This document shows, piece after piece, positions 1,808 through 48,069 of a stretch of DNA of 56,198 bases. The stretch comes from a virus (taxonomy: Duplodnaviria; Caudoviricetes): the IMG/VR virus record IMGVR_UViG_3300009103_000041, positions 1 to 56,198 of that record, one strand, 5' to 3'. The position numbers were made by a program, and so were the translations under genes. The first letter of the stretch is position 1. The number at the start of each line of letters is the position of its first letter. The notes beneath the pieces were generated by a model, which was not told where the DNA came from, made no database searches, and saw nothing but the letters and a program-made list of their open reading frames with translations.

Positions 1808-2190
1808 TTTCTAAACCCCTCATCATCATATGCCGGAGCAATTGTTTGGTGGTAGACCGGATGCTCTTCATCTTCTCCATAGAAATTAAATGGAAACATA
1901 CCATCTCTCAAATATGAATGCAAACCTCTTAGGTATGCTTGAGAAGCTGTCAATTTAGCTAATGCACCCCTTTCATTATTATGTACTGCCTTTTTTAATA
2001 TACTAATTTTCTCTTTAGTGGCTTTAATATATTGTTTTACATTTACCATAGACAACCCGTGGTCATCATCTAATGCTTGAACACTAGGCGCAATACTTTT
2101 ATATGCTGCTGGTTTTTTAGCTGCTCTTGCTTTAGCTAGATTAGCGGCCACTACTTTCTTTTGCTCTTCACTCATCTTACGTTTAACCAT
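1804..2190 (-). CDS. Hypothetical basic protein
   Basis: 128 aa ORF with SD (AGGAG), coupled to its neighbours. Confidence 0.7.
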   Translation of the reverse strand: MVKRKMSEEQKKVVAANLAKARAAKKPAAYKSIAPSVQALDDDHGLSMVNVKQYIKATKEKISILKKAVHNNERGALAKLTASQAYLRGLHSYLRDGMFPFNFYGEDEEHPVYHQTIAPAYDDEGFRK

Positions 2191-2857
2191 TATATTCTCC
2201 TTTAATCAATGGAACAAATCTTACACCTATTAATTTTTCTGTCCAAGTACCACCACCCTTTTTTCTTTTATGTATAAGGTGTAGCTTTTCATCAGAACCA
2301 AACATATTTCCACCAACGGCCTGCTTCATTGGTATAATCATTTTTCCATCAACAGCTAATTGTTCTATTAATGCTTTTGGTGGTATAAGTTCTTGTGATG
2401 TTGCAGTTACAATAATTCTGTCATAAGGTGCATGTGCTTTCCAACCCTCACAACCATCATCTAATTTTGTCTTAATATGTTTATGTTGTTCTATTGTTTG
2501 AAATAGTTTACTAGTTTTCATTGCTAGTTCTGGAACTCTTTCAACTGTATAAATCTTATTAGCTAAATAAGATAATACCGCAGCCTGATATCCAGACCCT
2601 GTACCAATTTCTAACACCTTATGATGCATCTCTACATCTAACATTTGTGTCATATATGCTACAATAAAGGGTTGGGAAATGGTTTGTTCATGACCTATTG
2701 GAAGTGGTCGGTCTGCGTATGGAACATTATTTTCGACAAAGAGATGCCTAGGGGTTTGCTCTAATGCATATTTAACCTTTTGATTAAGAGGACCTCCATA
2801 CTTTAGGAAGTGCTCATTAACCGTGTTAATCATTTCATCTAACTGTTCTTTATACAT
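2183..2857 (-). CDS. pcm: Protein-L-isoaspartate O-methyltransferase (PIMT)
   Basis: TISQP, VLEIGTGSGY, APYDRIIVTA and VRFVPL motifs. Confidence 0.95.
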   Translation of the reverse strand: MYKEQLDEMINTVNEHFLKYGGPLNQKVKYALEQTPRHLFVENNVPYADRPLPIGHEQTISQPFIVAYMTQMLDVEMHHKVLEIGTGSGYQAAVLSYLANKIYTVERVPELAMKTSKLFQTIEQHKHIKTKLDDGCEGWKAHAPYDRIIVTATSQELIPPKALIEQLAVDGKMIIPMKQAVGGNMFGSDEKLHLIHKRKKGGGTWTEKLIGVRFVPLIKGEYNG

Positions 2858-9742: not shown

Positions 9743-9771
9743 ATTATATCATAGTTTACTGCTTTTGTACA
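9743..9771 (-). promoter_or_regulatory. Early promoter (class A), leaderless for rnh
   Basis: TGTACA-N17-TATAAT; ATG 7 nt downstream of the -10. Confidence 0.7.
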
Positions 9772-10214
9772 TAGTCTTCTGATAAATTTTTCACTGAACC
9801 ATATCCAATCTTAATAGCTATAATACCATTATAATTTTGTGGATTCAATAGAACATCCTCATCAAATTGTATTTTAGCTTCCATATAATTTGTCTCACCA
9901 CGTGTTTTGCATAAACAAATAATCTCACGTTTAAAATTTTCTTTGCCTAAGCCTTCTATATCCTCAGTGAGTCTCTTACTTGAACCCCAATAATCCTGCC
10001 AATCGGTCTCTTTAGCCTTATGCCTTTTATTTTTTCTACCTACGAGGGGTTTAAGCTTTCGTATTGTCCTGAAATACTTACGTCCGATGTAGTCATATCC
10101 GGTGACCAAGTTGGTAATGCGATACACAAAACCATAAAAGTCAGCAATATCAGCAGAAGTAAATTGTCGTTCATTATACGTCCAACTGGGGTCCGTCATA
10201 TTCTTCTGCATCAA
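9756..10214 (-). CDS. GIY-YIG endonuclease (Seg-like)
   Basis: GFVY...YIGRK, YWGSS, FKREI, YN motifs. Confidence 0.85.
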   Translation of the reverse strand: MMQKNMTDPSWTYNERQFTSADIADFYGFVYRITNLVTGYDYIGRKYFRTIRKLKPLVGRKNKRHKAKETDWQDYWGSSKRLTEDIEGLGKENFKREIICLCKTRGETNYMEAKIQFDEDVLLNPQNYNGIIAIKIGYGSVKNLSEDYVQKQ

Positions 10215-10362: not shown

Positions 10363-10601
10363 AATCTTAATTCTCCTAATTGCATATGTGTCATTAACAT
10401 ATCATGACCACCTATATATTTTCCATCAATATATATCTGAGGAAATGTTCTGGCGTTTGGAACCGCTTTAAAAAAATCTTCTGGTGTCCAATTAGGTCCT
10501 TCAATATTTCTTTCCTCATAACTAATTTTTTTACTATCTAATAATGCCTTTGCTTTGGTACAAAGACTACAATTATTTTTACTCCATACTACTGCTCTCA
10601 T
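10359..10601 (-). CDS. nrdC: Glutaredoxin (NrdC-like)
   Basis: CSLC active site, TFPQI, IGG; directly after nrdB. Confidence 0.9.
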   Translation of the reverse strand: MRAVVWSKNNCSLCTKAKALLDSKKISYEERNIEGPNWTPEDFFKAVPNARTFPQIYIDGKYIGGHDMLMTHMQLGELRL

Positions 10602-11674
10602 AAGCTTAATCCCTCAAATGATTTTCTATTAACATCTTGTTTGACACCTCCGACAACATAAGATGTGATTTCTGTTTCTTGTGGTGCCACTTGGACAGCC
10701 CCACCACTTATCCATTTTTCAGTCCATGGAAGTGGGTTATGCATATGCACTGAGAATGGTACATGGTAATTAAGACTTTTAATTCTCTTTGCACCAATCC
10801 AACGCACATACTCTTTCAAAAGCTCAGTGTTTAAGCCAATCATTGAGCCATTACCAAATAGGTAATCACACCACTCCTCTTCTTGTATTAATGCATCTTC
10901 AAATAAATTCATTACTTGGTCATGTGTTTCTTCTTTAATTTTTTCAAAATCCTTATCATCTTTAATTAATTGTCTAATTATATTAAGTGATGCAGCTAAA
11001 TGCAAGTTCTCATCCCTTGCAATTAATTTAATTATTTTTGCGTTACCTTCCATTTGTTTTAACTCAGCAAATGCCCATGAACATGCAAAGCTTACATAAA
11101 ACCGTATTCCTTCTAATATGTATATAGAAATCATACAAAGGTATAATAATTTTTTATGTTTATAAGACCCAGTAGGTCCTTTATAATTAATTAGGTTATC
11201 ATAGTGTTCAGATATATCTTTGCCACAATCTAAAATTTCTGGTATAGACTTTATATCATCAAATACTTTAGATGGATTTGGATAAACATTTCTGATTAAA
11301 TGTGTGTATGAGCGAGAGTGAATGGTCTCAAAGAATGCCCAGGTCTCTATTAATAACTCTAGTTCTGGGTTACTCGCTATGGGTAATAATGCTAGGTCCG
11401 GTGACCTGCCCTGTACTGAATCTAAGAGTATTTGTCTTTTAAGGTTTGCTGTAAATATATGTTGTTCATTCTTTGTTAACTTACCAAAATCAATCTTATC
11501 CTTTGTGACATCTATCTCATCGGGTGTCCAATAAAAAGATAGCATCTTCTCATATAACTTTTGTAAGGCTGGGTATTTAACCACATCATATCTTGCTATG
11601 TCCACGCCCTCATCAAAAAATAATGTTTTATCTAAATGGTTTTTGGTGTTTATTTCAAATACTGATTTTTTCAT
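10598..11674 (-). CDS. nrdB: Ribonucleotide reductase class Ia beta subunit
   Basis: WTPDE, DSVQG, ETIHSRSY (radical Tyr), EGIRFY, DENLH, VAPQE. Confidence 0.97.
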   Translation of the reverse strand: MKKSVFEINTKNHLDKTLFFDEGVDIARYDVVKYPALQKLYEKMLSFYWTPDEIDVTKDKIDFGKLTKNEQHIFTANLKRQILLDSVQGRSPDLALLPIASNPELELLIETWAFFETIHSRSYTHLIRNVYPNPSKVFDDIKSIPEILDCGKDISEHYDNLINYKGPTGSYKHKKLLYLCMISIYILEGIRFYVSFACSWAFAELKQMEGNAKIIKLIARDENLHLAASLNIIRQLIKDDKDFEKIKEETHDQVMNLFEDALIQEEEWCDYLFGNGSMIGLNTELLKEYVRWIGAKRIKSLNYHVPFSVHMHNPLPWTEKWISGGAVQVAPQETEITSYVVGGVKQDVNRKSFEGLSL

Positions 11675-11680
11675 TTTTCA

Positions 11681-11992
11681 TCATACTGTAAAACTTTCTC
11701 CACAACCGCACCTTGCCCTTTCCTTTGGATTATAGAATTCAAAGCCTTCATTAAGACCTTTTTTCTTATGGTCTATTTCTGCGCCTTCTACATATACTTG
11801 GCTTTTTCTATCAATAACAATAGGAATACCTCTAACCTTAAAGACATCATCTTGGTCAGTTTCCATTATATTATATTCTAAGTGGTATGCCATACCTGAG
11901 CAACCAGTGCCTTTAACTAAAACTCTAAGCTGCATATTACCTGTGATTAAGGTATTTAATTTTTCAACAGCATTGTCGGTTAGGGTAATCAT
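11681..11992 (-). CDS. iscA: A-type Fe-S carrier (IscA/HesB)
   Basis: GCSGMAY and CGCGESF. Confidence 0.93.
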   Translation of the reverse strand: MITLTDNAVEKLNTLITGNMQLRVLVKGTGCSGMAYHLEYNIMETDQDDVFKVRGIPIVIDRKSQVYVEGAEIDHKKKGLNEGFEFYNPKERARCGCGESFTV

Positions 11993-12006
11993 AATGGTAT
12001 GTATAT

Positions 12007-12292
12007 AAAAAAAAGGACCGGAGTATTGGGTAATAAGGAACCCCGGAGGAAACCCCAGCTAGCTATTAAGCAGCTAGCAAGTAATCGTGTTTGCCGATTA
12101 AATTTTTCATTTTTAAGCCTTTGTTGGCTGACGAGTCTTGGGCGTTTATGCTAACTAGTCGATGCTTTGTCTCCCCCATCAAATATATTCTTTATTTAAT
12201 ATATTTGACATACTACCAAAAATATATTTGGTGGAGGAGGTGGGAGTTGCACCCACGTCCTAATTGCCTCTACCCTTACCTTTACGTCGTTA
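12007..12292 (-). ncRNA. ssrA: Circularly permuted (two-piece) tmRNA
   Basis: Acceptor piece ends ...GTGGG-TGCAACT-CCCAC-CTCCTCC-A-CCA at 12229; 51-nt spacer; coding piece starts GGGGGAG-ACAAAGCATCGAC at 12177 (G3.U70 pair); tag GKHDYLLAA-TAA-TAG at 12095-12063; hairpin plus U8 at the end. 5' boundary approximate. Confidence 0.9.
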
Positions 12293-12315
12293 TTCACTTC
12301 ATTTTTGAATGAATG

Positions 12316-12543
12316 TTATGCATCATCATGTGAGAGTAATTTCCACAAAATTCCTGCGGCAATTAATCCAACTAAACCTGCGTCACCAAGCTGAGCTACG
12401 ATACCAATGATTGTACCAATGACGTCTCCGCCAAGGAAAGGTACGCTTCCACCAAAAACGATTTGCAAAACAATCGCTAAGCTTATTAGTGAAACACCAA
12501 TACCTGTTGCAGCGGCTACGCCGCTTGTGATTTTATCTAACAT
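12316..12543 (-). CDS. Small Gly-rich membrane protein
   Basis: 75 aa, two or three hydrophobic helices, SD AGGAG. Confidence 0.75.
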   Translation of the reverse strand: MLDKITSGVAAATGIGVSLISLAIVLQIVFGGSVPFLGGDVIGTIIGIVAQLGDAGLVGLIAAGILWKLLSHDDA

Positions 12544-12579: not shown

Positions 12580-12726
12580 TTATTTCGAAGGTATATCTTC
12601 CTTAAAATTATTATTTAACTTATCATTTGCTTTAAGGAATAGTGGGAATAAAGTATTTGATAACACCCCAATAATTGCTAGTGTTAATATAAATCCTATT
12701 CCCGCACTTTGAAAAAATTCTGTCAT
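12580..12726 (-). CDS. 48-aa single-TM peptide
   Basis: Not in the ORF track; MTEFFQSAGIGFILTLAIIGVLSNTLFPLFLK...; follows a promoter. Confidence 0.45.
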   Translation of the reverse strand: MTEFFQSAGIGFILTLAIIGVLSNTLFPLFLKANDKLNNNFKEDIPSK

Positions 12727-12809: not shown

Positions 12810-15104
12810 TTATAAAGAACAGCTTTCACAGTACTCTTCATAGTCCTTTTGACTATCAAAGTCCTCTCTAGATAGGGTTGATTCATCCTCAGTGGTTAAA
12901 TCATTTGTATTAAAATAATATAATTGTTTACCACCATACTTATAAAATGTAATTAAATCCTTAAGCATTATAGACAATGGGATTTTATTATCTTCATATT
13001 GAGCTGGATTATAACTGGTATTAACAGATATTCCTTGGTCAACATACTTTTGAATTATAGCCATAATTTTAAGATAGCCCTCTGGTCCTTGTTGGTCCCA
13101 CAATAAATCATATTTATTTTTAAGGTTATACATATTAGGTACTACTTGAGGCATTACACCATCTTTAGATTGCTTATAAGATACAAGAGCCCTTGGTGGT
13201 TCTATACCATTGGTTGAATTACTTATCTGAGCTGAGGTTTCAGCCGGCATAACGGCCATTAAAGTTGAGTTTCTAATACCTTTTTTCTTAAGCTGTTCCC
13301 TTAATGCCTTCCAAGGCATCCTTTGTTTTGGTTTGACTAACTCATCCACCTCTTTTTTATAGGTGTCTATAGGTAAGATTCCGTGTCCGTACTTGGTCTC
13401 CATGTTCTTATAGCAACATCCTTGCTCTTTAGCCAAATCTGCAGAGGCTTTAATTAGATAATATGACCACGCTTCTGCATATTCATCAACGGTTTTTAAG
13501 GCCTCGTCATTATATTTAAGACCTCTTTTAGCTAAGAAATATGCAAGGTTAATTATACCAACACCCAAAGGTCTCCTATTCATTGTTGACCGCTGTGCCG
13601 CAATAATAGGATAGTTCTGATAATCCAATAAAGAATCTAAGGCACGTACTGCTAATTCACAGTAATGTTTAAATTGAGATGGTTCATTTATTAATCCCCA
13701 GTTAATTGCAGATAATGTACATAAAGATATCTCACCTTTATCAGTATCATCATAAGCTTCTAATCCATAACTTGGTAAATCTATTTCACAACATAAATTA
13801 CTTTGGTGAATAGGTGCTTGTTGTTCTATAAATGCACCATGTGTATTTGCATGGTCAACATTTTGTAAGTATATCCGACCAGTCTCTTTGCGTTCTGTAA
13901 GAAATTGTGAGAATACTTCTAAAGCTGGTAAAGATTTTTTCCTAATTGAATATGCCCTTTCATACTTCTCATATAATTCTTGGAACTTATCTTGGTCCTC
14001 AAAAAATGCATCATATAATCCTGGGACATCGTCTGGACTAAAGAATGTTATCTTACCACCAGTTAATAATCTCTCATACATAAGCTTATTAAATTGGAAT
14101 GCATAGTCCATATTACGTACACGGGTTTCTTCAGTACCTCTATTATTTTTAAGGACTACTAAGTCCTCAAATTCATAATGCCATACTGGTAGATATACAG
14201 TTGCTGCTCCACCTCGTACTCCACCTTGACTACAACTTTTAACTGCACTTTGAAAATATTTAAGGAATGGAATTAATCCAGTATGTACAACAGAGCCATC
14301 ACCAATGTGACTACCCACCGCTCTAATCTTTCCAGCATTAATTCCTAAGCCGGCTTTCTTACTAATATATTTAACAATGGATGTTGATGTTGCATTAATT
14401 GAGTTTAAAGAATCATTAGATTCTAATACTACGCATGAGGAAAATTGTCTTGTTGGAGTTCTACAACCAGCCATGATTGGTGTTGGAAGAGAGATATAAA
14501 ATTGACTAATAGCATTATAAAATTCTCTTATAAACTTCATACGTCTTCCATTATATCTAGCAAATAATGTCATAGCAATCATAATATATAATATCTGAGG
14601 TGTTTCGTATAGTGTGCCATCCGTTCGGTTTTGAACTAAATACTTTGATTGCATTTGCTCCATACCAGCATATGTGAATTCATCATCTCTGTTATGGTTA
14701 ATAATATGGCTATTAATATAATCTATTTCAGCCTCTGAATATTTATTTAATATTTCTGGGTCATATACACCAGCATCAATATTATGATTTATAATATCAA
14801 TAAGAGGCCAAGGGTCTTTGTCACCATATACTATTTTTTTAAGCTTATAATTAATAAGCCTTGCCGCTACAAATTGGTAGTTAGGTGTATTTTCAGTTAT
14901 GAGTTCGGCTGTGGATTTGATAAGAAGGTCATGGATTTTAATAGTTTCCATGTGTTCATATAGTTGAACATTAGCCCTAAGTTCTATTTCAGAAACAGAG
15001 ACACCAACTAAATCATCACAAGCCCATTCAAGAACGCGGTGGATTTTATTAATATTAAATGGCTCAGTTTCACCACTGCGCTTGGTTACAAAAATTGACG
15101 TCAT
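12810..15104 (-). CDS. nrdA: Ribonucleotide reductase class Ia alpha subunit
   Basis: ATP cone (VTKRSG), SSC, SNLCCEI, CTL, MPAETS, C-terminal CESC; no intron or intein evident. Confidence 0.98.
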   Translation of the reverse strand: MTSIFVTKRSGETEPFNINKIHRVLEWACDDLVGVSVSEIELRANVQLYEHMETIKIHDLLIKSTAELITENTPNYQFVAARLINYKLKKIVYGDKDPWPLIDIINHNIDAGVYDPEILNKYSEAEIDYINSHIINHNRDDEFTYAGMEQMQSKYLVQNRTDGTLYETPQILYIMIAMTLFARYNGRRMKFIREFYNAISQFYISLPTPIMAGCRTPTRQFSSCVVLESNDSLNSINATSTSIVKYISKKAGLGINAGKIRAVGSHIGDGSVVHTGLIPFLKYFQSAVKSCSQGGVRGGAATVYLPVWHYEFEDLVVLKNNRGTEETRVRNMDYAFQFNKLMYERLLTGGKITFFSPDDVPGLYDAFFEDQDKFQELYEKYERAYSIRKKSLPALEVFSQFLTERKETGRIYLQNVDHANTHGAFIEQQAPIHQSNLCCEIDLPSYGLEAYDDTDKGEISLCTLSAINWGLINEPSQFKHYCELAVRALDSLLDYQNYPIIAAQRSTMNRRPLGVGIINLAYFLAKRGLKYNDEALKTVDEYAEAWSYYLIKASADLAKEQGCCYKNMETKYGHGILPIDTYKKEVDELVKPKQRMPWKALREQLKKKGIRNSTLMAVMPAETSAQISNSTNGIEPPRALVSYKQSKDGVMPQVVPNMYNLKNKYDLLWDQQGPEGYLKIMAIIQKYVDQGISVNTSYNPAQYEDNKIPLSIMLKDLITFYKYGGKQLYYFNTNDLTTEDESTLSREDFDSQKDYEEYCESCSL

Positions 15105-18696: not shown

Positions 18697-20729
18697 ACTG
18701 GAAATTCCGTTATTTTATCTTCTGGAACAGTTGATGTACCTTCAATATTAAAATTGAATGCACTTGCTCCACTCTTTTTAAATGCTATCTTATGGTACTT
18801 TGCTATACCATTATCTAACTCAGCAAATATCCACATATTAATTACCCAATATGGATTTATTTTATGTGGTAATACAGCAGCCTTTAATACTTTAATTTGT
18901 TTACCATCTAACTCTGGATTTTTTTGGGTGATTTTACCAACAGTAATAACTTCATAATCGGCGGCACTTGGATTACCATACACCTTAACAACCGGCAAAT
19001 TGGTATCTCCCATAGACATAGCCTGATTTAAATCATTAATAACCTTTATACCATTTTTATTAACATCACTTATAATATCATTAATAATTTGGAAAGATAT
19101 TACATTAGCCACTAAGAAATTAATAGCACCTGGTTCTGTAATATCAAACTTTTGATTTTCTATTCTTACATCACATACATCAGTATTTTTATTTTTTGCA
19201 ACCGTGTTATAATGCTTCTTAATAACATTAGCATATTTTCTTGTAATAGCTGAGTCTTTAACAATAGCATTAAGCATTGCTCCCTGGGACATTTCATTTA
19301 ATACATCTTCTGCAATATATCCTTCACCAAGGAATTTACTTCTTTTAGTCATCCTTTCAATTTCTGTGAATGTAGACTTTTCATATCTCTTTGCTAACTT
19401 ACTTATAAATCCTTTAATCCTATTCCAATATTTAAGTACTGCAACCGCGGCTACTTTGAATTTTTTAAGAGCAGCGCCGCCAATTTGTTTCATTTTAGCA
19501 GCAGCACTTCCAAAAAATCCTTCTCGTAATAGTTGTTGATATTCAAGTTCTTCTCCAAACCAACTGGTATCAATACCAGCTCTAGCCATATTGTCTTGAG
19601 TATCTCCATCAACTGGGTATTTACCTTTAAGTAAGAATGTAATCTTACCAAGTTTAGCTTTACCCATTCCAAGTTTTAAAGATATTTGGTACCATTCAAT
19701 ACCATTACATGATAATTTACCGGTCTTTTCATCCATTATAATTGGACTATCACTCTTTAATGCCTTATATAATTCTGTTTCTGTACCATCAACAAGGACA
19801 CAGTCCGATGTGTTGTCTTTAATTGTACCCTCTATACCTTCTTTGTTTTTTAAGTTTGTATAATATGTTTTAATACCGGTCCAAATTACGTATGGTCTTT
19901 TAACATCAATTTTGTTTTTATAATAATGACTACCATTAACTAGGCTTATAACATCACTACCTAATGTTTTATCTGCATCAAGGTAGTCAACAAATTTCTG
20001 CCATTCTTTAATATAACTACGTATTTGGAAATCACCAACAATTTTTAAATCAGTTAATTGTTTTTTAAAGGTATTAGGAGTTAATGGACTTGGTATGAAT
20101 AATCCAATTGCTTGAAAGAATTCTAAAAAGTCTGTATTTGTAGCAATACCAAAATCAGATAACATCACAGATTTTTTATTTGAAACTGACCCCGTTCCCC
20201 ATATAAGTAATTCTGCTCCTCTTGCGGTATGTAAACTAGGAAATTCTTTATGTAAATCATCTAATTTATATTTCTTATTTAAAGTTGTATTAACTTTAAT
20301 CTTTCCACCTTTAGGATTAAATACTAAAGAACCTGGACCTAATTTTTTAAATAATTTATCAATATCGTCTTTCTGTTTAGAAGAATATGGTAAGGACTTA
20401 ATATCAGATTTATTTTCATATTCTAAATTATATGCTTCTGTAATACTCCAATCTTTTACTGCTTCATATCTGGTTTTTCTATTTAATACTTTAGCAAACT
20501 CTCTATGATTTAATTTAAAATGGTCGGCTGCTATGTCTCTCATTTTTTGGTCAGATACACCTCGCTTTTTCATATCTGCATTTTTCTTAAAGGAATGATA
20601 CATTGCTAATGCGCCTTTATACTTATCGGCATGAGCTATTCTATAAATTTTGCGCTTTATTTTTTTAGGAAGTAAGTCAACTAATCGCATTTGTGTTGTT
20701 TCATCTATGTGTTCTCTAAATCCTTGCAT
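18693..20729 (-). CDS. Large putative internal virion protein with nuclease-like core
   Basis: CTS-like N-terminus; NTSDCVL...YQISLK resembles a PD-(D/E)XK variant. Confidence 0.5.
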   Translation of the reverse strand: MQGFREHIDETTQMRLVDLLPKKIKRKIYRIAHADKYKGALAMYHSFKKNADMKKRGVSDQKMRDIAADHFKLNHREFAKVLNRKTRYEAVKDWSITEAYNLEYENKSDIKSLPYSSKQKDDIDKLFKKLGPGSLVFNPKGGKIKVNTTLNKKYKLDDLHKEFPSLHTARGAELLIWGTGSVSNKKSVMLSDFGIATNTDFLEFFQAIGLFIPSPLTPNTFKKQLTDLKIVGDFQIRSYIKEWQKFVDYLDADKTLGSDVISLVNGSHYYKNKIDVKRPYVIWTGIKTYYTNLKNKEGIEGTIKDNTSDCVLVDGTETELYKALKSDSPIIMDEKTGKLSCNGIEWYQISLKLGMGKAKLGKITFLLKGKYPVDGDTQDNMARAGIDTSWFGEELEYQQLLREGFFGSAAAKMKQIGGAALKKFKVAAVAVLKYWNRIKGFISKLAKRYEKSTFTEIERMTKRSKFLGEGYIAEDVLNEMSQGAMLNAIVKDSAITRKYANVIKKHYNTVAKNKNTDVCDVRIENQKFDITEPGAINFLVANVISFQIINDIISDVNKNGIKVINDLNQAMSMGDTNLPVVKVYGNPSAADYEVITVGKITQKNPELDGKQIKVLKAAVLPHKINPYWVINMWIFAELDNGIAKYHKIAFKKSGASAFNFNIEGTSTVPEDKITEFPV

Positions 20730-21394
20730 TAATTATCCCTCATCCATTGTTGAGCTATCTTATTCTTTGGCATAGTCTTAGACCATTTAGATATTGTACC
20801 ATATAATCTGCGTGTTTGTGCTGGTGTTTTTTCAAATACTGAATTATCTACTTCAAAAAATAATTTACCAAACATTTTTCTGTATCTATTAATATTTTTT
20901 TCAACTGATTTATGCATTGAAGTTATCATTTTAGGACCAAGACTTCTACCACCAGTTGCGCCTCTCATATCGTCGTTCTCAATAGCAGATTCTAAACTTG
21001 TTGAGACATATATCATAGCACATTCATAACCCTTTGCTTCTAATTCTTTCTTTTGAGTTGCAATTTTACCTACATTACGAGCAGTTCCATCAATAACAAG
21101 ACCTAATCTACCTATCTCGGCATGCCTTTTCTTTGATTGACTATGTTTTTTTGCAACGGCTCTTGTTACATCTCTTTGGAATTGCTGGTCAACATTTAAT
21201 ACTAAATCTAAAAAAGCATCTTTCATATAACGAGTAAATTCATTATCTGAATTAATTTCTTTATATCCAAGCTGGCCAGGCAAAGCTAGTTCTTTTGCGA
21301 CATGAGATTTACCTGCTCCAGGTGAGCCGGCCATAAATACTGCGTGGAAAATTGATGGGTCGTTCCTACCCTCAAAAACTTTAAATGACTGCAT
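20729..21394 (-). CDS. P-loop kinase (zeta toxin/PNK-like)
   Basis: MAGSPGAGKS Walker A, INSD, VIDGT. Confidence 0.8.
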   Translation of the reverse strand: MQSFKVFEGRNDPSIFHAVFMAGSPGAGKSHVAKELALPGQLGYKEINSDNEFTRYMKDAFLDLVLNVDQQFQRDVTRAVAKKHSQSKKRHAEIGRLGLVIDGTARNVGKIATQKKELEAKGYECAMIYVSTSLESAIENDDMRGATGGRSLGPKMITSMHKSVEKNINRYRKMFGKLFFEVDNSVFEKTPAQTRRLYGTISKWSKTMPKNKIAQQWMRDN

Positions 21395-36819: not shown

Positions 36820-37200
36820 TTACCTGTGTTGTTTTGATTTGTAATCTTTTATTGCCGTTTTAATTGAATCTTCAGCTAAAACTGAGCAATGGATTTTGAC
36901 TGGAGGTAAGTTAAGTTGTTCAACCACCTCTGTATTTTTTATTTGTGTTGCTTCATCAAGGGTCATACCTTTAAGCATTTCTGTTATAATAGAAGAAGAT
37001 GCTATTGCAGAACCACAGCCATAACATTTAAATACTGCATCCTGTATAATATCTTTCTCTACTTTAATTTGTAGCTTCATAACATCACCACAAGAAGGAG
37101 CACCTACCATACCAGTTCCAACATTTTTATCATTAATATCCATCTTACCCACATTGCGTGGATTGTTATAATGGTCTAAAACTGCGCCTGAATATGCCAT
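36820..37200 (-). CDS. iscU: Fe-S scaffold IscU
   Basis: NPRNVG, GAPSCGDVM, YGCGSAIAS, LPPVKIHCS. Confidence 0.96.
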   Translation of the reverse strand: MAYSGAVLDHYNNPRNVGKMDINDKNVGTGMVGAPSCGDVMKLQIKVEKDIIQDAVFKCYGCGSAIASSSIITEMLKGMTLDEATQIKNTEVVEQLNLPPVKIHCSVLAEDSIKTAIKDYKSKQHR

Positions 37201-37219: not shown

Positions 37220-37678
37220 TTACCCAAGCAATAGCTTTTTAGCGTGCTTAGGTAGGTCACCTAAATTGATAGTTTGAGGCTTGTCCTCTTCTGGAATATC
37301 ATTCTCCAAAACAACAACAAGCAATCCATCTATAATGTCAGCTCCAACAACCTTAATTGTGTCGCTTAAAGTAAATGAACGCTCAAACGCCCTTTGAGAA
37401 ATACCACGATGTGTGTAATCTCTCTTATCTGAATCGCTATGTCTGCGACCAGATATAGTTAAAACCCCTTTTTCAAGAGTTAAGTCAATGTCTTCTTTCT
37501 TAAATCCTGCAACAGCGATTTCAATTAAAAAGTGACCGTCATCTCTTTTAACAACATTGTAAGGTGGATACCCTACGCCTCTGGCGGCTTGCATGTTTGT
37601 TTCCGCTAGTGTGTTAAAGAGTGAATCAAATCCCAGGAATGTATCCCTCGGGAAGTTAGTAAATGCTAAGTTTGTCAT
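37220..37678 (-). CDS. hsp20: Small heat-shock protein (Hsp20/IbpA-like)
   Basis: YPPYN, IEIAVAGF, HRGIS.RAFERSFTL, DGLL. Confidence 0.95.
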   Translation of the reverse strand: MTNLAFTNFPRDTFLGFDSLFNTLAETNMQAARGVGYPPYNVVKRDDGHFLIEIAVAGFKKEDIDLTLEKGVLTISGRRHSDSDKRDYTHRGISQRAFERSFTLSDTIKVVGADIIDGLLVVVLENDIPEEDKPQTINLGDLPKHAKKLLLG

Positions 37679-44834: not shown

Positions 44835-45926
44835 TTAATTTAAATTTAATGCTAAAAATAATGCTTCATCTTTAATCAATTCCTTATCAATATTTCTATC
44901 ACAATTACCATTCACTCTTTTATATGGTGAATTGGCAGGACTATCTATTGCCCACCAAGTAATTCCAATGTCTGCTGGATTTAAAGTATCATAAACAACT
45001 TCAACATACTTTGCTCTATCCTCTGGGTCTGGTCCAAGTCCATCACATTTACCATGTAATCCTATTTCACTTAATACCACTGGGACATTATATTTATTTG
45101 AGTAATTAATAAGTTGGCTCATATGTGATTTAACTTCACCTAGGTATGGCATAACTTTTAATTCCTCATGTGCATAATAATGAAAGCCATAAATAATATT
45201 TGTCCTATCAATAGGAAGTAATAAATTTGCTGGATTTCCATGCCTTGCCCATAAGCCTTTATGTATTCCTTCAATTATAATTGTTCTCCCAGGGGAGACT
45301 TTTCTTATAGCATCAACAATTTCTGTTGACCACTCTTGCCATATTTCTCTTTTATTCCAAGCTCTCATTTGTTCAAACTCAGGCTCATTTAAAACATTAA
45401 AGATTAAATTATTATTGGAGATATGCTTTAAGTCTTTTGATATGATTTCCCAAAGCTTATGATATGTCTCTCTAACTTCTTTATCATTTTCAAATGCTTC
45501 ATGCCAGCGTGTTTGGTTCATACCATCTGGTGCTTTATAAAAAGTTTCATATCCAGGCTTTAAGGAAATACCAAACACAGCATCAGGATGCTCAATTAAA
45601 ATCTTTTCAATTTGTTCTCCAATAGATTTAATTTTTTTATGGACTAATAATTCATCAATGGTCTTAAAGTCTTTACTTAAAAATCTATTAAATGCAATTA
45701 TATAAACATAATGAGACCAACCATCATCAAGGACTTGGTCAACTTTTAAGATATCTTCTGAGACTGTCAATGAAGCAAAGTCAATATCACTTGTCCAATT
45801 TGCACTTGAATTTGCTCCAACTTCTGTAAGTTGGTTCATAACATTATTTGGAATATTATTATCTTCCCAAGCACCAGCGTTGGCGTAATGAGAAAATAAT
45901 AATACTAAACTAAGCAGCAACCGCAT
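44835..45926 (-). CDS. Secreted glycoside hydrolase, GH5/clan A
   Basis: Signal peptide MRLLLSLVLLFSHYANA; LNEP acid/base, FHYY, LSEIG nucleophile, TWW. Confidence 0.75.
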   Translation of the reverse strand: MRLLLSLVLLFSHYANAGAWEDNNIPNNVMNQLTEVGANSSANWTSDIDFASLTVSEDILKVDQVLDDGWSHYVYIIAFNRFLSKDFKTIDELLVHKKIKSIGEQIEKILIEHPDAVFGISLKPGYETFYKAPDGMNQTRWHEAFENDKEVRETYHKLWEIISKDLKHISNNNLIFNVLNEPEFEQMRAWNKREIWQEWSTEIVDAIRKVSPGRTIIIEGIHKGLWARHGNPANLLLPIDRTNIIYGFHYYAHEELKVMPYLGEVKSHMSQLINYSNKYNVPVVLSEIGLHGKCDGLGPDPEDRAKYVEVVYDTLNPADIGITWWAIDSPANSPYKRVNGNCDRNIDKELIKDEALFLALNLN

Positions 45927-48069
45927 CTGTAATTTTTCCAACTAATTGCTTAGTGGTTTTCTTAGTTCTATTGAATTTTTTAAATTCACGTTTAATGTCT
46001 TTCAATTCAGTTTTTCCATCTGGTAAAACAAACTCATCATCTGTAACTTTCTTATTAATTTTTATTACAAAATAGTTGTCATAACCTTTTGCTTTTTTGA
46101 ATTCAGAAAAACCTTCTTTTCTCCATTTTTTAATCATAGTTTGAAAATCAAGATAATCATTATATGGGTCATCATCTTTAATTCCATATATTCCTTGACC
46201 AAATGAAGAAGCATCAGTCGCTAAATGGAAACCCATTATAGTAGCACCAGTTAATTCTTTAAGACGCCCTAACATATTTTTATACATTTCTCTAGAACCA
46301 TCAGCTTTAATTAATTTACCATCAAAGTTTATTGTCTTTTTTCCAGAATGAGTTTTAACATCAGCATGCTTATCCTCTTCAATATAAATTCCATCAGGAG
46401 CACCATCAGTTAAGAACATCAAATTTGTATTTTGTATTCCATGTTTTTTAACAAAAGCCTTAGTCAATCTTGAGGCTAACATACATGTTTGGACAAGTGG
46501 AGTTGAACCCATTTGGTCTATTTTTGATAATTCCCTGCTAGACATATAATATGGAATTTGTCTAGAATATGAATGAGCTTTTGAAACTGCAAACATTGTG
46601 AAAGAAGCCTCATCAAAAGTTTTGTTATTCATATATGAAGAAAACATCTCAACAATTTTAGCACCTTTAATATCCATTTCACCTTCAGCTAATGTGACCT
46701 CTGGACGAATATCATCTGAGTAGTAAGAAGTGGTTGTGAATGAATATGCCTCAAAAGGTATATTAACTTTTCTACAAAACATTGCAATAGTAATTGCTTG
46801 GGCCATAACATCTTCTATGATTTCACACATTGAACCTGAAAGGTCTAGGAACATTATAATTCCATGTGATTTAGCTTGAGCTAATTTAGTAGTTGTTAAA
46901 AAGATATCCTCAGTCATTTTATATGAATGAAGCTTTAATGGGTCAAGCTTTCCAGATTTTGCTGTAGTAGCTTTTGAATATTCAAACGCTGCTTTCTTTC
47001 TTTCAAAATCCTTAGCTAATAATTTAGCTGTTGAATTATAACCTGCTTTAGATTTATTCCAATCTTCTTTACACTTATGTGAAACATAAGCACAATATTC
47101 ATAATCTCTTTCTGTTAATTTTTCAACCATAAATTTTTCACGAGCAGCTTCAGCTTCTTTATATGTGAATAACATATTTTTAAGATTAACATCAGAAATT
47201 CCAGAAGAAAACTGTGATTGCCTATTATTATCATAACGGTCAGTTTCTTTATCTAAAAGATTTTCTTCATTTTCTCTAAAAGTATCATCAGTGAAAGTTT
47301 CATGACCAGGCTCAATAGGTGCTTTATCTTTTTCACCATCACCTTCACCATCACCTTTACCACCTTCACTTTCTTGGTCGTCATCATCATCTTCTGGAGG
47401 AGTGGTACCTTTAGGATTTTCAGTTTCAACTTCATCATCGCCGTCCATATCATTACTTGGAAAATCAGCGCCTGTACCTTCAGGCATTTCATCTTCTTCC
47501 TCTTTATTTTCTTCAACAAAGTCATAGAATTTTTTACAAACATTAACAACGTCATCCCAAGTTTCAACTTTCATAGCTTCTTCAACTAATGGAGTTTCTT
47601 CATCTGAGAATTCAACTGGAATATAACCACGACCTTTTGAATGAACATTAAGTCTGTCCATAAGACCAGCCTCATTAATGTCCCTGTCATCTGTACCAAA
47701 TAGGTTATCATTAAAAAGTTTTTTATAACCATTTTTAAAACGACGAACTATTCCAGGATATGTCTCTTGGATTTTACGTTCAATACGGATATCTTCAACG
47801 ATGTTTAAATAAGCTCTAGGAATTTTTCCAATTTTCTTTTCAGAATCATGCCACCCATCAGCTGGGGTATAAAGAGCATGACCAACCTCGTGACCAACTA
47901 GTAAGTCATAAACATCCTTACCTTTGTCTTCCCAAAGTGGTAATCTTAAAACTCTATTTAAAACATCAAAGCTAGCTGTAGAATAATTACCATGTTGAAC
48001 TGATAAATTTTCTTTTGCTAAAAGCTTTGCTAAATATTCTTGTGCTGATAAATTCATTATGCGTTCCAC
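45910..48069 (-). CDS. Metallopeptidase-VWA protein (CobT-like partner of the MoxR ATPase)
   Basis: HEVGH, acidic linker, MIDAS DLSGSM...TP...LTDG. Confidence 0.85.
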   Translation of the reverse strand: MERIMNLSAQEYLAKLLAKENLSVQHGNYSTASFDVLNRVLRLPLWEDKGKDVYDLLVGHEVGHALYTPADGWHDSEKKIGKIPRAYLNIVEDIRIERKIQETYPGIVRRFKNGYKKLFNDNLFGTDDRDINEAGLMDRLNVHSKGRGYIPVEFSDEETPLVEEAMKVETWDDVVNVCKKFYDFVEENKEEEDEMPEGTGADFPSNDMDGDDEVETENPKGTTPPEDDDDDQESEGGKGDGEGDGEKDKAPIEPGHETFTDDTFRENEENLLDKETDRYDNNRQSQFSSGISDVNLKNMLFTYKEAEAAREKFMVEKLTERDYEYCAYVSHKCKEDWNKSKAGYNSTAKLLAKDFERKKAAFEYSKATTAKSGKLDPLKLHSYKMTEDIFLTTTKLAQAKSHGIIMFLDLSGSMCEIIEDVMAQAITIAMFCRKVNIPFEAYSFTTTSYYSDDIRPEVTLAEGEMDIKGAKIVEMFSSYMNNKTFDEASFTMFAVSKAHSYSRQIPYYMSSRELSKIDQMGSTPLVQTCMLASRLTKAFVKKHGIQNTNLMFLTDGAPDGIYIEEDKHADVKTHSGKKTINFDGKLIKADGSREMYKNMLGRLKELTGATIMGFHLATDASSFGQGIYGIKDDDPYNDYLDFQTMIKKWRKEGFSEFKKAKGYDNYFVIKINKKVTDDEFVLPDGKTELKDIKREFKKFNRTKKTTKQLVGKITDAVAA

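Follow-up and report, generated by a model that had tools for sequence, protein, structure and literature searches.

The DNA examined here, a viral stretch of 56,198 nucleotides that we call the window, raises the question of whether a segment at positions 12007-12292 of its minus strand is a working tmRNA gene of the phage or something that merely resembles one. An earlier note on the sequence had read this segment as a tmRNA gene of a T4-like phage, circularly permuted and in two pieces, and this reading was borne out by an Rfam match, by covariation, by a tag frame kept among relatives and by T4-type replication genes nearby. We put at about 85% the probability that the segment is a functional permuted two-piece tmRNA gene of an uncultured marine T4-like phage, located between nrdA and nrdB.

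Identification of the gene

The minus strand from 12289 to 12066 matched the tmRNA_permuted model of Rfam (RF04321) with 79.1 bits, where the gathering score is 47; over the whole window the E value is 1.5e-13. The alignment takes in all 213 positions of the model (1-213). The order of the parts is permuted. That is, ACCA at the end of the acceptor strand finishes at 12229, a spacer of 51 nt follows, and GGGGGAG begins at 12177. Every element that had been named from the sequence (T-arm, acceptor, spacer, inter-piece helices, tag, hairpin and the run of eight T) was found at its position when the minus strand was read, and the features are listed in Table 1. The fold energy of the 294-nt stretch was -87.3 kcal/mol (z = -4.53), and none of 200 shuffled sequences was as stable. 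The gene is real and well conserved, and its structure is far beyond chance.

Table 1. Features of the tmRNA locus and its neighbours, in window positions
Feature	Position	Strand	Elements	Basis or remark
Upstream neighbour, hydrophobic ORF of 75 aa	12316..12543	minus	no family match	profile scan
Conserved hairpin	12294..12315	minus	CATTCATT / AATGAAGTG, one bulge	directly after stop codon of upstream ORF
5' part of acceptor piece	12260..12289	minus	5' strands of three inter-piece helices: GACG 12288-12285 (pairs with CGTC 12133-12130); GGG 12275-12273; GC and AATTAG 12267-12260 (AATTAG 12265-12260 pairs with CTAGTT 12158-12153)	RF04321 alignment
T-arm	12240..12256	minus	GTGGG 12256-12252, loop TGCAACT 12251-12245, CCCAC 12244-12240	
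Acceptor-stem 3' strand and 3' end	12229..12239	minus	CTCCTCC 12239-12233, discriminator A, encoded CCA; predicted mature 3' end of acceptor piece at 12229	sequence and RF04321
Intervening segment, 51 nt	12178..12228	minus	between ACCA and GGGGGAG	predicted to be removed
Acceptor-stem 5' strand	12171..12177	minus	GGGGGAG	predicted 5' end of coding piece (RNase P site) at 12177
D-arm-like stretch and 3' strands of inter-piece helices	12130..12170	minus	ACAAAGCATCGA; CTAGTT 12158-12153, GC 12151-12150, CCC 12142-12140, CGTC 12133-12130	RF04321, helix table
Small hairpin upstream of tag frame	12116..12129	minus	AGCC-AACAAA-GGCT	RF04321 structure
Resume-codon helix, 5 bp	12082..12100	minus	TAATC 12100-12096 / GATTA 12086-12082, enclosing the resume codon	RNAalifold
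Tag frame	12066..12095	minus	GGC AAA CAC GAT TAC TTG CTA GCT GCT TAA	(A)GKHDYLLAA
Stop-codon hairpin	12058..12078	minus	GCTAGCT / AGCTAGC; last tag codons and stop in loop	helix 7
Proposed H-type pseudoknot	12018..12056	minus	GGGG 12056-12053 / CCTT 12038-12035; CCGGGG 12046-12041 / CTCCGG 12023-12018	
Run of 8 T after last stem	12007..12014	minus		T-rich run conserved in relatives
Downstream neighbour, IscA/HesB-like iron-sulphur assembly protein	11681..11992	minus		PF01521

The check by ARAGORN or Infernal that had been suggested for this locus gave a divided result: the permuted Rfam model was positive, as described above, and ARAGORN called no tmRNA in the window or in a 1-kb excerpt. ARAGORN did call a permuted tmRNA in three relatives (L127, L128 and L138), with the tag in the frame that we also read in the window. 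A G in the T-loop was considered as the cause of the miss and was ruled out by the called fractions of loci with the permuted signature, which were 43 of 57 for loops with G and 59 of 85 for loops with U; L138, with the loop TGCAACT, is called, and L141, with TTCAACT, is missed. Thus a standard gene finder, ARAGORN, fails here on a tmRNA gene that is well conserved and that the newer permuted model of Rfam detects.

In the window, all three Rfam models for particular lineages stayed below their cut-offs. The best of them was the betaproteobacterial model (beta_tmRNA, RF01850), whose gathering score of 84 was missed both by the window (64.2 bits, E = 3e-19, full length 1-331) and by L127 (69.9 bits), for which it was again the best lineage model. 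The alphaproteobacterial model (alpha_tmRNA, RF01849; gathering score 50) scored below the beta model in the window and was dropped as the lower-scoring overlapping match. L138 fits the alpha model better, with 54.7 bits limited to model positions 58-192. Relatives scored 86.9 and 84.6 bits on RF04321.

Conservation of the structure among relatives

Covariation in homologs had been named in advance as a check on the reading, and the sequences now available support the helices. Related loci in viral contigs numbered 59, which together with the window gave 40 distinct sequences. In these, 98.9% of the 1887 cells of the proposed structure are paired, and 11 of the 48 pairs show changes on both sides (82 cells), compared with 1-4 pairs (1-12 cells) in controls with slid partners. 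Among 500 shuffles, none came up to the observed values for four of the five measures. RNAalifold independently recovered the T-arm, the acceptor stem, the spacer stem, an inter-piece helix and both hairpins. Judged from these alignments, selection evidently acts on both the fold and the tag frame, and the covariation of the family supplies a ready structure model.

The evidence is spread unevenly over the molecule. Inter-piece helices 1-3 hold six pairs that are changed on both sides in the 40 sequences. The T-arm stem (5 bp with a 7-nt loop) is paired in 100% of cells, and one of its pairs occurs as five pair types. All seven pairs of the acceptor stem GGGGGAG/CTCCTCC are invariant in 40 of 40 sequences, including G12175 with U12235, that is, the G3.U70 pair, whose U-G (alignment columns 86/228) is kept in all 40. 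Covariation gives no evidence for three parts that are nearly invariant: the acceptor stem, the larger part of the T-arm and the second stem of the pseudoknot.

In the coding piece, 24 sequences have UA and 16 have CG at one pair of the small hairpin (helix 6); this hairpin occupies the place of pseudoknot 1 in one-piece tmRNAs. In the resume-codon helix, columns 308/323 pair as UA in 33 sequences and as AU in 7, and the change from UA to AU turns the Asp codon GAT of the tag into the Val codon GTT. Three of the seven pairs of the stop-codon hairpin are changed on both sides. The two pseudoknot stems (helices 8 and 9) are 100% paired with one-sided changes only, and RNAalifold, which is unable to predict pseudoknots, drew another structure there. 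The pseudoknot loop CCUUAUUACCCAA aligns with the loop of RF01850, and we propose GGGG/CCTT as a model of the first stem. A second register for this stem (UGR with YYA in the loop) was prompted by two linked changes noticed by eye; it was left out because it is incompatible with a GGU/ACC alternative and has just these two events behind it.

The tag frame and its meaning

The earlier note had read the tag as (A)GKHDYLLAA, and this reading held up: all 39 complete copies keep the frame open, and it is also the frame that ARAGORN finds in relatives. The C-terminal end is Y(L/A)LAA throughout. The tags are 9 or 10 codons long, so that their lengths differ by whole codons; synonymous changes occur at the Ala and Leu codons, and the stop codon is TAA in 14, TGA in 11 and TAG in 14 copies. 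In the window a second stop, TAG (12065-12063), directly follows the TAA.

These observations bear on the idea that the RNA is mainly a decoy or regulator, which would titrate host SmpB, AlaRS or ribosomes and block host trans-translation without any tagging of its own. Such molecules have a precedent, since the RNA of mycobacteriophage DS6A comes close to a tRNA-like domain only, and a similar molecule strongly inhibits tmRNA (PMC4131195, PMC11915505). In addition, the phage copies score much lower on RF04321 (79-91 bits, the window being at 79) than the alphaproteobacterial copies among the matches listed (84-171 bits, mostly 118-171). However, a decoy needs no message, and the message is what has been kept here: the frame is open in every complete copy, its changes are synonymous or of whole codons, the Y(L/A)LAA end persists, and both the stop-codon hairpin and the resume-codon helix covary. 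We therefore regard a decoy as very improbable and read the RNA as a tmRNA that would append its own tag.

The tag itself might have a role peculiar to the phage, through a phage-encoded adaptor or an altered choice of protease. The resume codon is Gly or Asp and never Ala in the 39 complete copies, and the tag of the window has one residue fewer than the usual form of 10 codons, with Lys-His where relatives have Asn-Gln-Asn/Ser. Against this stands the C-terminal LAA, which is invariant in all 39 copies. LAA is the part of the tag that is read by ClpX. The N-terminal part is variable even among close relatives, an argument against a tight partner, and no candidate adaptor was found among the window ORFs scanned. 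A working tmRNA with such a special tag role seems improbable to us. The earlier note had connected a deviant tag with rerouted proteolysis. The tag deviates in no striking way: the 10-codon forms of the family, such as GNQNDYLLAA, agree with the classical tag in length and in the pattern N..Y.LAA, and there is no sign of rerouting. An ordinary rescue tag remains the preferred reading.

The spacer, the RNA evidence and transcription

The spacer together with A12229 forms a stem of 12 bp, and three unpaired bases (GAT) remain before G12177. Relatives differ in the length (26-133 nt) and the sequence of the spacer, yet 28 of its 31 distinct forms make a stem of 10-13 pairs that starts at the last base of CCA; RNAalifold pairs spacer columns 92-97 with 217-222, with compensatory changes. 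The last base of CCA is T in 14 of the 59 loci, with a matching change opposite, so that the 3' end in these loci must come from trimming followed by CCA addition. The variable spacer, including the copies without an encoded last CCA base and those with a nested small ORF, offers a natural series for the study of precursor processing. In some members of the family the spacer is enlarged and holds a zinc-ribbon-like ORF of 50 codons.

A metatranscriptome contig (X3 record 4) covers exactly 12015-12177 without differences, which is the predicted coding piece. Three letters of this contig beyond 12177 are unplaced, it comes from a single study, and assembled contigs cannot prove RNA ends; the exact end at 12177 is thus a weak hint of precursor processing. 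An RNA-library contig of another run spans 12120-12435 and crosses the spacer, and stretches that lack cover by RNA contigs are uninformative in either direction.

The run of eight T is likely, from its place in the sequence, to be an intrinsic terminator or a 3' end region. The terminator scan omitted it (12014-12007) because the loop exceeds the length limit of the scan. An RNA-library contig (X4 record 6, 11917-12071) crosses the run, which means that termination there is incomplete or that the contig is DNA. At the other end of the gene, a sigma-70 scan found nothing specific just upstream and gave 10 promoter-like sites against 6.9 expected; one promoter-like site lies at 12791-12763. The hairpin that directly follows the upstream ORF is also present in the upstream sequence of relatives, and in L138 it differs in sequence (by eye, uncounted). 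It may be the 5' leader of the tmRNA precursor or the end structure of the upstream mRNA, and given its conservation the gene may extend slightly past 12292.

Genomic setting and the search for a bacterial donor

The window carries T4-type replication genes, and its DNA polymerase is closest to those of Kyanoviridae, at less than 50% identity. The isolate with the closest polymerase is phage C48C1 (49.8%), in which RF04321 found no match. The tmRNA gene sits between nrdA and nrdB in the window. A homolog of the 75-aa ORF lies upstream of the gene in 57 of the 59 related loci; iscA lies downstream in 49, and nrdB directly downstream in 8 others. Across the contigs compared, the gene evidently holds a fixed place in this phage lineage.

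The fixed place is important for a further alternative, namely that the locus is a passenger, a copy or fragment of host ssrA that was acquired, for example, at an integration site and does nothing for the phage. Integration into tmRNA genes is common. When 50,697 phage records were searched by BLAST with the 301-nt region, no close copy was found in phage isolates; the only hits were T-arm matches of 45-48 nt in 21 records of temperate enterobacterial phages or ssrA, and these ssrA-like pieces count in favour of a passenger. Capture from prophages is discussed by Buchholz et al. (PMC9004378). However, the gene in the window is complete and is no fragment, its diversification preserves the structure, and it occupies one place in at least 57 of the 59 related T4-like phage loci.

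We also searched about 185,000 bacterial species representatives for the acceptor stem in permuted order. The pattern covered this acceptor stem only, with spacers leaving 14-44 bases between ACC and GGGGGAGA, so that donors whose stem differs or whose spacer is longer fall outside it. There were eight matches: six lacked tmRNA features, one lay after the 3' end of a non-permuted tmRNA-like gene, and one was phage-like. The phage-like match is a 5-kb contig filed in a MAG that has eight permuted-tmRNA matches on eight contigs. Apart from this contig, no bacterial species representative showed GGGGGAG in permuted order within the limits of the pattern, which again argues against a passenger. 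Among 151 sampled genomes of the betaproteobacterial class, none gave a beta_tmRNA match over the cut-off. Taken together, a passenger is scarcely credible, and we retain the view that the gene serves the phage.

It is a different matter whether the gene comes from a line of tmRNAs with a long evolution inside phages rather than being a recent host acquisition. An acceptor stem of its own (GGGGGAG), the lack of an above-cut-off fit to the three bacterial two-piece lineages, the resume-codon helix, the fixed place in the nrd cluster and the ORF-bearing enlarged spacer of some members all point in this direction. We hold this reading to be tentative and on the whole rather unlikely. If it were true, the phages would possess a partly private system of ribosome rescue and tagging, with tag and processing tuned to phage needs.

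Proposed working of the RNA

The following account of how the RNA is processed and charged, of its partners and of what the phage gains is our inference. One minus-strand precursor, possibly including two small upstream ORFs, would start from the promoter-like site at 12791-12763 and fold so that the spacer stem prolongs the acceptor stem. To remove the spacer (12228-12178), RNase P would cut at G12177 and the 3' end would be trimmed back to the CCA at 12229. The acceptor piece would then measure about 60-70 nt and the coding piece, from 12177 to about 12010, about 165 nt; the acceptor stem and three more helices would keep the two together. The RNA might then be charged with alanine by way of G3.U70 and enter stalled ribosomes with host SmpB and EF-Tu. 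Translation would resume at GGC 12095 and append (A)GKHDYLLAA, and through its LAA end the product would reach host proteases, ClpXP for example. In infection, ribosomes stalled on broken messages would be freed.

The use of host SmpB and RNase P, as the earlier note had supposed, is plausible; no SmpB was found among the 64 window ORFs scanned, in a record that represents about 31% of the genome.

Comparison with known tmRNAs

A two-piece tmRNA of Alphaproteobacteria is said to have been first shown working in Caulobacter, by Keiler, Shapiro and Williams in 2000. The genes of this group (RF01849) share with the window the permuted order, the spacer between CCA and G1, and a small hairpin where the first pseudoknot would be. 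The acceptor strand CTCCTCC, which the window has, occurs in none of 30 alphaproteobacterial samples, and their T-loop is GGCRGUA in 30 of 30, whereas that of the window is UGCAACU. The second position is G in both, and also in the loop UGCAAUA of the cultured T4-like Pelagibacter phage HTVC008M. G is present as well in 39 of 75 permuted-looking phage loci, and among the window's close relatives this position is sometimes U and sometimes G. The T-loop had been regarded as atypical and as a possible means of nuclease evasion; it is ordinary for a two-piece tmRNA, and the idea of evasion is unsupported.

The betaproteobacterial two-piece tmRNA was reportedly described by Sharkady and Williams in 2004. 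Its model, the best lineage model for the window, aligned with the post-tag hairpin and the pseudoknot loop CCUU.UUACC.AA, even though the gathering score was missed. An independent permutation had also been suggested for this gene, and this finds no support: the gene can be aligned over its full length with the general permuted and the betaproteobacterial models, the 3' pseudoknot loop included.

The gene opens no new class of system, and the kind itself is not new, because two-piece tmRNAs of marine T4-like phages are already published: 53 are reported in phage isolates by Buchholz et al. 2022 (PMC9004378), whose supplement lists 53 rows marked 'Permuted' and gives no tag sequences. What is added here is a distinct sequence family of 59 viral loci, to date from uncultured phages only.

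We confirmed the two-piece gene of HTVC008M, which scored 90.6 bits on RF04321 and 83.8 bits on RF01849. The HTVC008M/Melnitz group and the window agree in the T4-like phage, in the order 3' tRNA half, spacer, 5' half and tag, and HTVC008M belongs to the same RF04321 family. They also have in common that the tag ends in ALAA or LLAA. The sequence likeness to HTVC008M is confined to 41 nt of T-arm and acceptor (83%). HTVC008M passes the alpha model (83.8 against 50 bits), whereas the best lineage model for the window is beta, below its cut-off, and the window has the acceptor stem GGGGGAG, not GGGGGUG. According to PMC9004378, the ssrA gene of the Methylophilales phage Melnitz comes with a glutamine riboswitch and adjoins a late-transcription coactivator; in contrast, the window gene lies in the nrd cluster, and no glutamine riboswitch matched above Rfam thresholds anywhere in the window. 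The one-piece tmRNAs of mycobacteriophages and of Bacillus phage G are likewise phage-borne ribosome-rescue RNAs, but, as described in PMC4131195, their genes are unpermuted or consist of the tRNA-like domain alone, whereas the gene in the window is permuted.

Gene elements and model match

We read the minus strand of 11800-12500 and found every element that the earlier note had listed for a circularly permuted, two-piece tmRNA gene at 12007-12292; they are collected in the table together with neighbouring genes. A working two-piece tmRNA is in our opinion the most likely reading of this gene, with a probability of about 0.85. RF04321, the general permuted tmRNA model of Rfam, scored 79.1 bits at 12289-12066 (gathering score 47) with all 213 model positions aligned, and it was the sole Rfam family above threshold across the 56-kb window. 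ARAGORN, which the note had also named as a check, called no tmRNA gene in the window. That is, the gene is missed by ARAGORN but detected by RF04321. The 294-nt stretch folded at -87.3 kcal/mol (z -4.53), and 0 of 200 shuffles were as stable.

Coordinates of the tmRNA gene elements, adjoining ORFs and host-like accessory genes in the window
Feature	Position	Strand	Remark
T-arm GTGGG-TGCAACT-CCCAC	12256-12240	minus	sequence reading
Acceptor 3' strand CTCCTCC, then ACCA	end at 12229	minus	sequence reading
Spacer, 51 nt	12228-12178	minus	sequence reading
5' acceptor strand GGGGGAG	12177-12171	minus	sequence reading
Tag frame GGC AAA CAC GAT TAC TTG CTA GCT GCT TAA, then TAG	12095-12066	minus	sequence reading
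Run of eight T, after hairpin and more structure	12014-12007	minus	sequence reading
Two small hydrophobic ORFs	12580-12726 and 12316-12543		upstream of tmRNA gene
IscA-like gene	11681-11992		downstream of tmRNA gene; host-like accessory
NifU_N/IscU	36820-37200		host-like accessory
Hsp20	37220-37678		host-like accessory
TctA-family transporter subunit, 473 aa	39360-40781		host-like accessory
Protein-isoaspartate methyltransferase	2183-2857		host-like accessory
GH5 cellulase-family protein	44835-45941		host-like accessory
Zeta-toxin-like kinase	20729-21394		host-like accessory

A conserved hairpin (12294-12315, minus) lies between the stop codon of a 75-aa ORF and the tmRNA body. It also occurs in the upstream sequence of relatives, that of L138 having a different sequence (alignment A1), and it may be a 5' structure of the precursor or an mRNA end.

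Phage lineage and relatives

The IMG/VR virus record is linear and is estimated to be 31% complete; every large ORF in it is encoded by the minus strand. The label "T4-like" was right, as the window carries T4-type replication genes (gp32, gp59, gp41, UvsX, gp43, gp44/62, gp45, RegA, gp46/47 and RNase H) and NrdA/NrdB. Among phage isolates, the DNA polymerase came closest to that of Phage C48C1 (49.8% identity), with Synechococcus myophages next at about 47%. These results indicate a T4-like phage of an uncultured lineage. The tmRNA gene is placed between nrdA (12810-15104) and nrdB (10598-11674). A SegE-like GIY-YIG homing endonuclease ORF (PF19835, E 1.5e-37; 9756-10214, minus) has the RNase H gene on one side and the glutaredoxin and nrdB genes on the other. 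Among the accessory genes, the TctA membrane transporter is an unusual cargo for a phage.

An exact 32-base pattern matched five viral contigs, a 5'-half pattern 59 viral loci, and a looser pattern of T-arm and acceptor at least 120 viral loci. A homolog of the 75-aa ORF was present upstream in 57 of the 59 loci; L136, which starts at base 1 of its contig, and L145 gave no upstream match to it. The tmRNA gene was followed by the IscA-like gene in 49 and directly by nrdB in 8, and the two loci with no downstream match (L181 and L185) both stop at the contig end. With its neighbours kept in nearly all of these loci, the tmRNA gene is firmly established in one phage lineage. Among the looser-pattern matches listed (at least 120), 75 were followed within 200 nt by the matching 5' acceptor half and 62 were called permuted tmRNA by ARAGORN; with at least 75 such loci among the matches listed, permuted tmRNA genes are common in IMG/VR contigs.

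Selection on the structure

The structure was drawn from the window's sequence and then counted on alignment A2, in which the 59 loci and the window give 40 distinct sequences. Its 48 pairs were paired in 98.9% of 1887 cells. The earlier note had asked about covariation in homologs, and double-sided changes were found in 11 pairs (82 cells), whereas controls with partners slid by 1-3 columns gave only 1-4 pairs (1-12 cells). None of 500 shuffles matched the observed paired cells, double-change pairs, double-change cells or covariation score. The value for "further pair types" was reached in 236 of 500 shuffles, so that this measure is uninformative. Of the 11 pairs with compensatory changes, six belong to the three helices expected to join the two pieces and three to the stop-codon hairpin; the T-stem and the small hairpin ahead of the tag have one each. 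The acceptor stem was invariant, with G3.U70 in 40/40, and it is therefore neutral as covariation evidence, neither for nor against.

RNAalifold, blind to the drawn structure, found an inter-piece helix, the T-arm, the acceptor stem, the spacer stem and both hairpins. It added a 5-bp helix, TAATC/GATTA, round the resume codon (12082-12100, minus), which takes the compensatory form TAAAC/GTTTA in 7 of 40 sequences. As this change also swaps the tag residue Asp for Val, RNA structure and tag sequence are coupled. The drawn pseudoknot at 12056-12018 was fully paired in A2 with one-sided changes only, and so it stays a proposal.

In L138 and L148, about 20 extra bases (GGGGAGAATATCCCTAGTGAC; A2 columns 343-362) directly follow the tag stop codon and sit in the loop of the stop-codon hairpin. 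Both loci are without the IscA-like gene downstream.

Conservation of the tag

In all 39 complete copies, the tag frame was open for 9 or 10 codons from the resume codon and ended in Y(L/A)LAA. TAA and TAG each served as the stop codon in 14 copies, and TGA in the other 11. Leu codons varied, every one of the four Ala codons was in use, and copies differed in length by whole codons. In the relatives that it called, ARAGORN gave the same frame (GNQNDYLLAA, GNQSDYLLAA, DNNVYLLAA). GKHDYLLAA of the window occurred once in the set, and GKNDYLLAA, one residue off, seven times. The RNA might be thought a mere decoy that is not translated, but the frame open in 39/39, the whole-codon length changes and the varied Ala and Leu codons argue against this; judged from these sequences, the conservation is the signature of a translated message. 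The earlier note suggested that the tag might reroute proteolysis. This idea is without support; the 10-codon forms of the family match the classical tag in length and share its N..Y.LAA pattern.

T-loop and origin of the permutation

The T-loop had been regarded as atypical, possibly as a means of evading nucleases. Among the looser-pattern matches listed (at least 120), G at T-loop position 2 occurred in 39 of 75 loci with the permuted signature vs 1 of 45 without it. The cultured Pelagibacter phage HTVC008M, whose permuted tmRNA gene we confirmed directly, resembles the window in this G (T-loop UGCAAUA), and so did 30/30 sampled alphaproteobacterial two-piece tmRNAs (GGCRGUA). In the family the T-loop was mostly TTCAATT, and the close relatives L138 (TGCAACT) and L141 (TTCAACT) differed by one base. 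Nothing here calls for nuclease evasion as an explanation.

The best lineage model was beta_tmRNA for the window (64.2 bits vs a cut-off of 84) and likewise for L127 (69.9 bits), and alpha_tmRNA for L138 (partial, 54.7 bits, positions 58-192); HTVC008M passed alpha_tmRNA clearly with 83.8 bits. The sub-threshold betaproteobacterial alignment of the window gene covers the 3' pseudoknot loop. An independent permutation, which the earlier note had considered, is not indicated: over its full length the gene can be aligned with RF04321 and with the betaproteobacterial model, the latter below threshold.

We scanned one bacterial genome per species (185,579 species) for the acceptor stem of the window's gene, permuted and with 14-44 bases between ACC and GGGGGAGA, and obtained eight matches. 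One was real: L192, which shares its 5-kb contig in the bacterial genome G001 with the neighbour genes seen in the phage. Six others were rejected as sequence without tmRNA features, and another as lying 3' of a tmRNA-like gene in non-permuted form. In the class of G001, RF04321 was above cut-off in 146 of 151 sampled genomes (a tally that takes in G042, flagged unpublished, whose sequence was unused), with scores of 84-171 bits, most 118-171, among the matches listed; the acceptor strand CTCCTCC was found in 0 of 30 loci read. In the class of a second genome, G002, beta_tmRNA was above cut-off in 0 of 151. Up to now, the family has turned up in phage DNA alone. G001, a MAG filed under Rhodobacteraceae, gave eight permuted-tmRNA matches on eight contigs (C169, C57, C69, C173, C105, C172, C256 and C174), one being the phage-like 5-kb contig; this bin probably holds several phage contigs or several organisms mixed in.

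The earlier note's remark that the best-known phage tmRNAs are one-piece agrees with Hudson et al. 2014 (PMC4131195), where those then known were one-piece or TLD-only. Two-piece tmRNA in phages is already published: Buchholz et al. 2022 (PMC9004378) describe a two-piece ssrA in Melnitz, a T4-like OM43 phage, a permuted tmRNA in 17/47 Melnitz-like contigs, and 53 two-piece forms among 133 unique tmRNA structures from 18,146 phage genomes; of the 53, 50 came from phages of marine or aquatic origin. RF04321 was introduced in the paper on the tmRNA database (PMC11915505), which counts 79 phage sequences. In the literature on permuted or two-piece phage and pelagimyophage tmRNA we found no description of this particular family. 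What is added here is a distinct sequence family seen only in phages.

Spacer and predicted processing

The spacer ranged from 26 to 133 nt across the family, and its sequence was free. The self-complementary ends seen earlier were borne out: in 28 of 31 distinct forms, the sequence from the last CCA base onward pairs with the spacer end over 10-13 pairs, leaving three unpaired bases ahead of G1. Such a stem, kept while length and sequence are free, would be expected if this segment directed processing and was then removed. In 14 of the 59 loci (L139, L146, L147, L149, L152, L154, L160, L161, L166, L171, L174, L176, L177 and L182), CCT replaced CCA at the acceptor end, and the opposite base of the spacer stem was changed to match. 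The terminal A is thus untemplated in these loci, and the mature end must arise by trimming and CCA addition.

The sequencing runs compared are all in the form of assembled contigs, from which RNA ends cannot be proved. In the RNA run X3, a 166-letter contig matched 12015-12177 with zero differences; this span, which starts at G1 and stops just short of the T-run, is that of the predicted coding piece. Three more letters at the 12177 side were unplaced. This contig, from one study, weakly hints that the RNA is cut at 12177. A contig of X1, which is labelled metatranscriptomic and is probably DNA, spans 12120-12435 through the spacer, and one of the RNA run X4 (11917-12071) crosses the T-run; both are a warning that there is read-through or that the library contains DNA.

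The sequences show the gene, its fold, selection on both fold and tag frame, and synteny, and from these the processing, charging, partners and gain for the phage are inferred. On the most likely reading, RNase P would cut one precursor at G12177, trimming would produce the CCA end at 12229, and the two pieces would stay joined through the acceptor stem plus three helices. The RNA would be charged with alanine via G3.U70 and, with host SmpB as partner, would add (A)GKHDYLLAA to stalled products, presumably to the benefit of the phage.

Four distinct members (L130, L163, L165 and L179) have spacers of 133 nt vs 26-63 nt elsewhere. These hold an ATG-started 50-codon ORF, MKEIIWHFSCK.C.GWWSIAV.D.W.PKKLFCPHCGKPY.YDGGD.ASIR, whose two CxxC pairs resemble those of a very small zinc ribbon. 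This frame extends 27 nt into the 5' acceptor half; few residues differ among the copies, and the spacer stem is kept. It would be unusual for a protein gene to lie nested in the part of a tmRNA precursor that is discarded.
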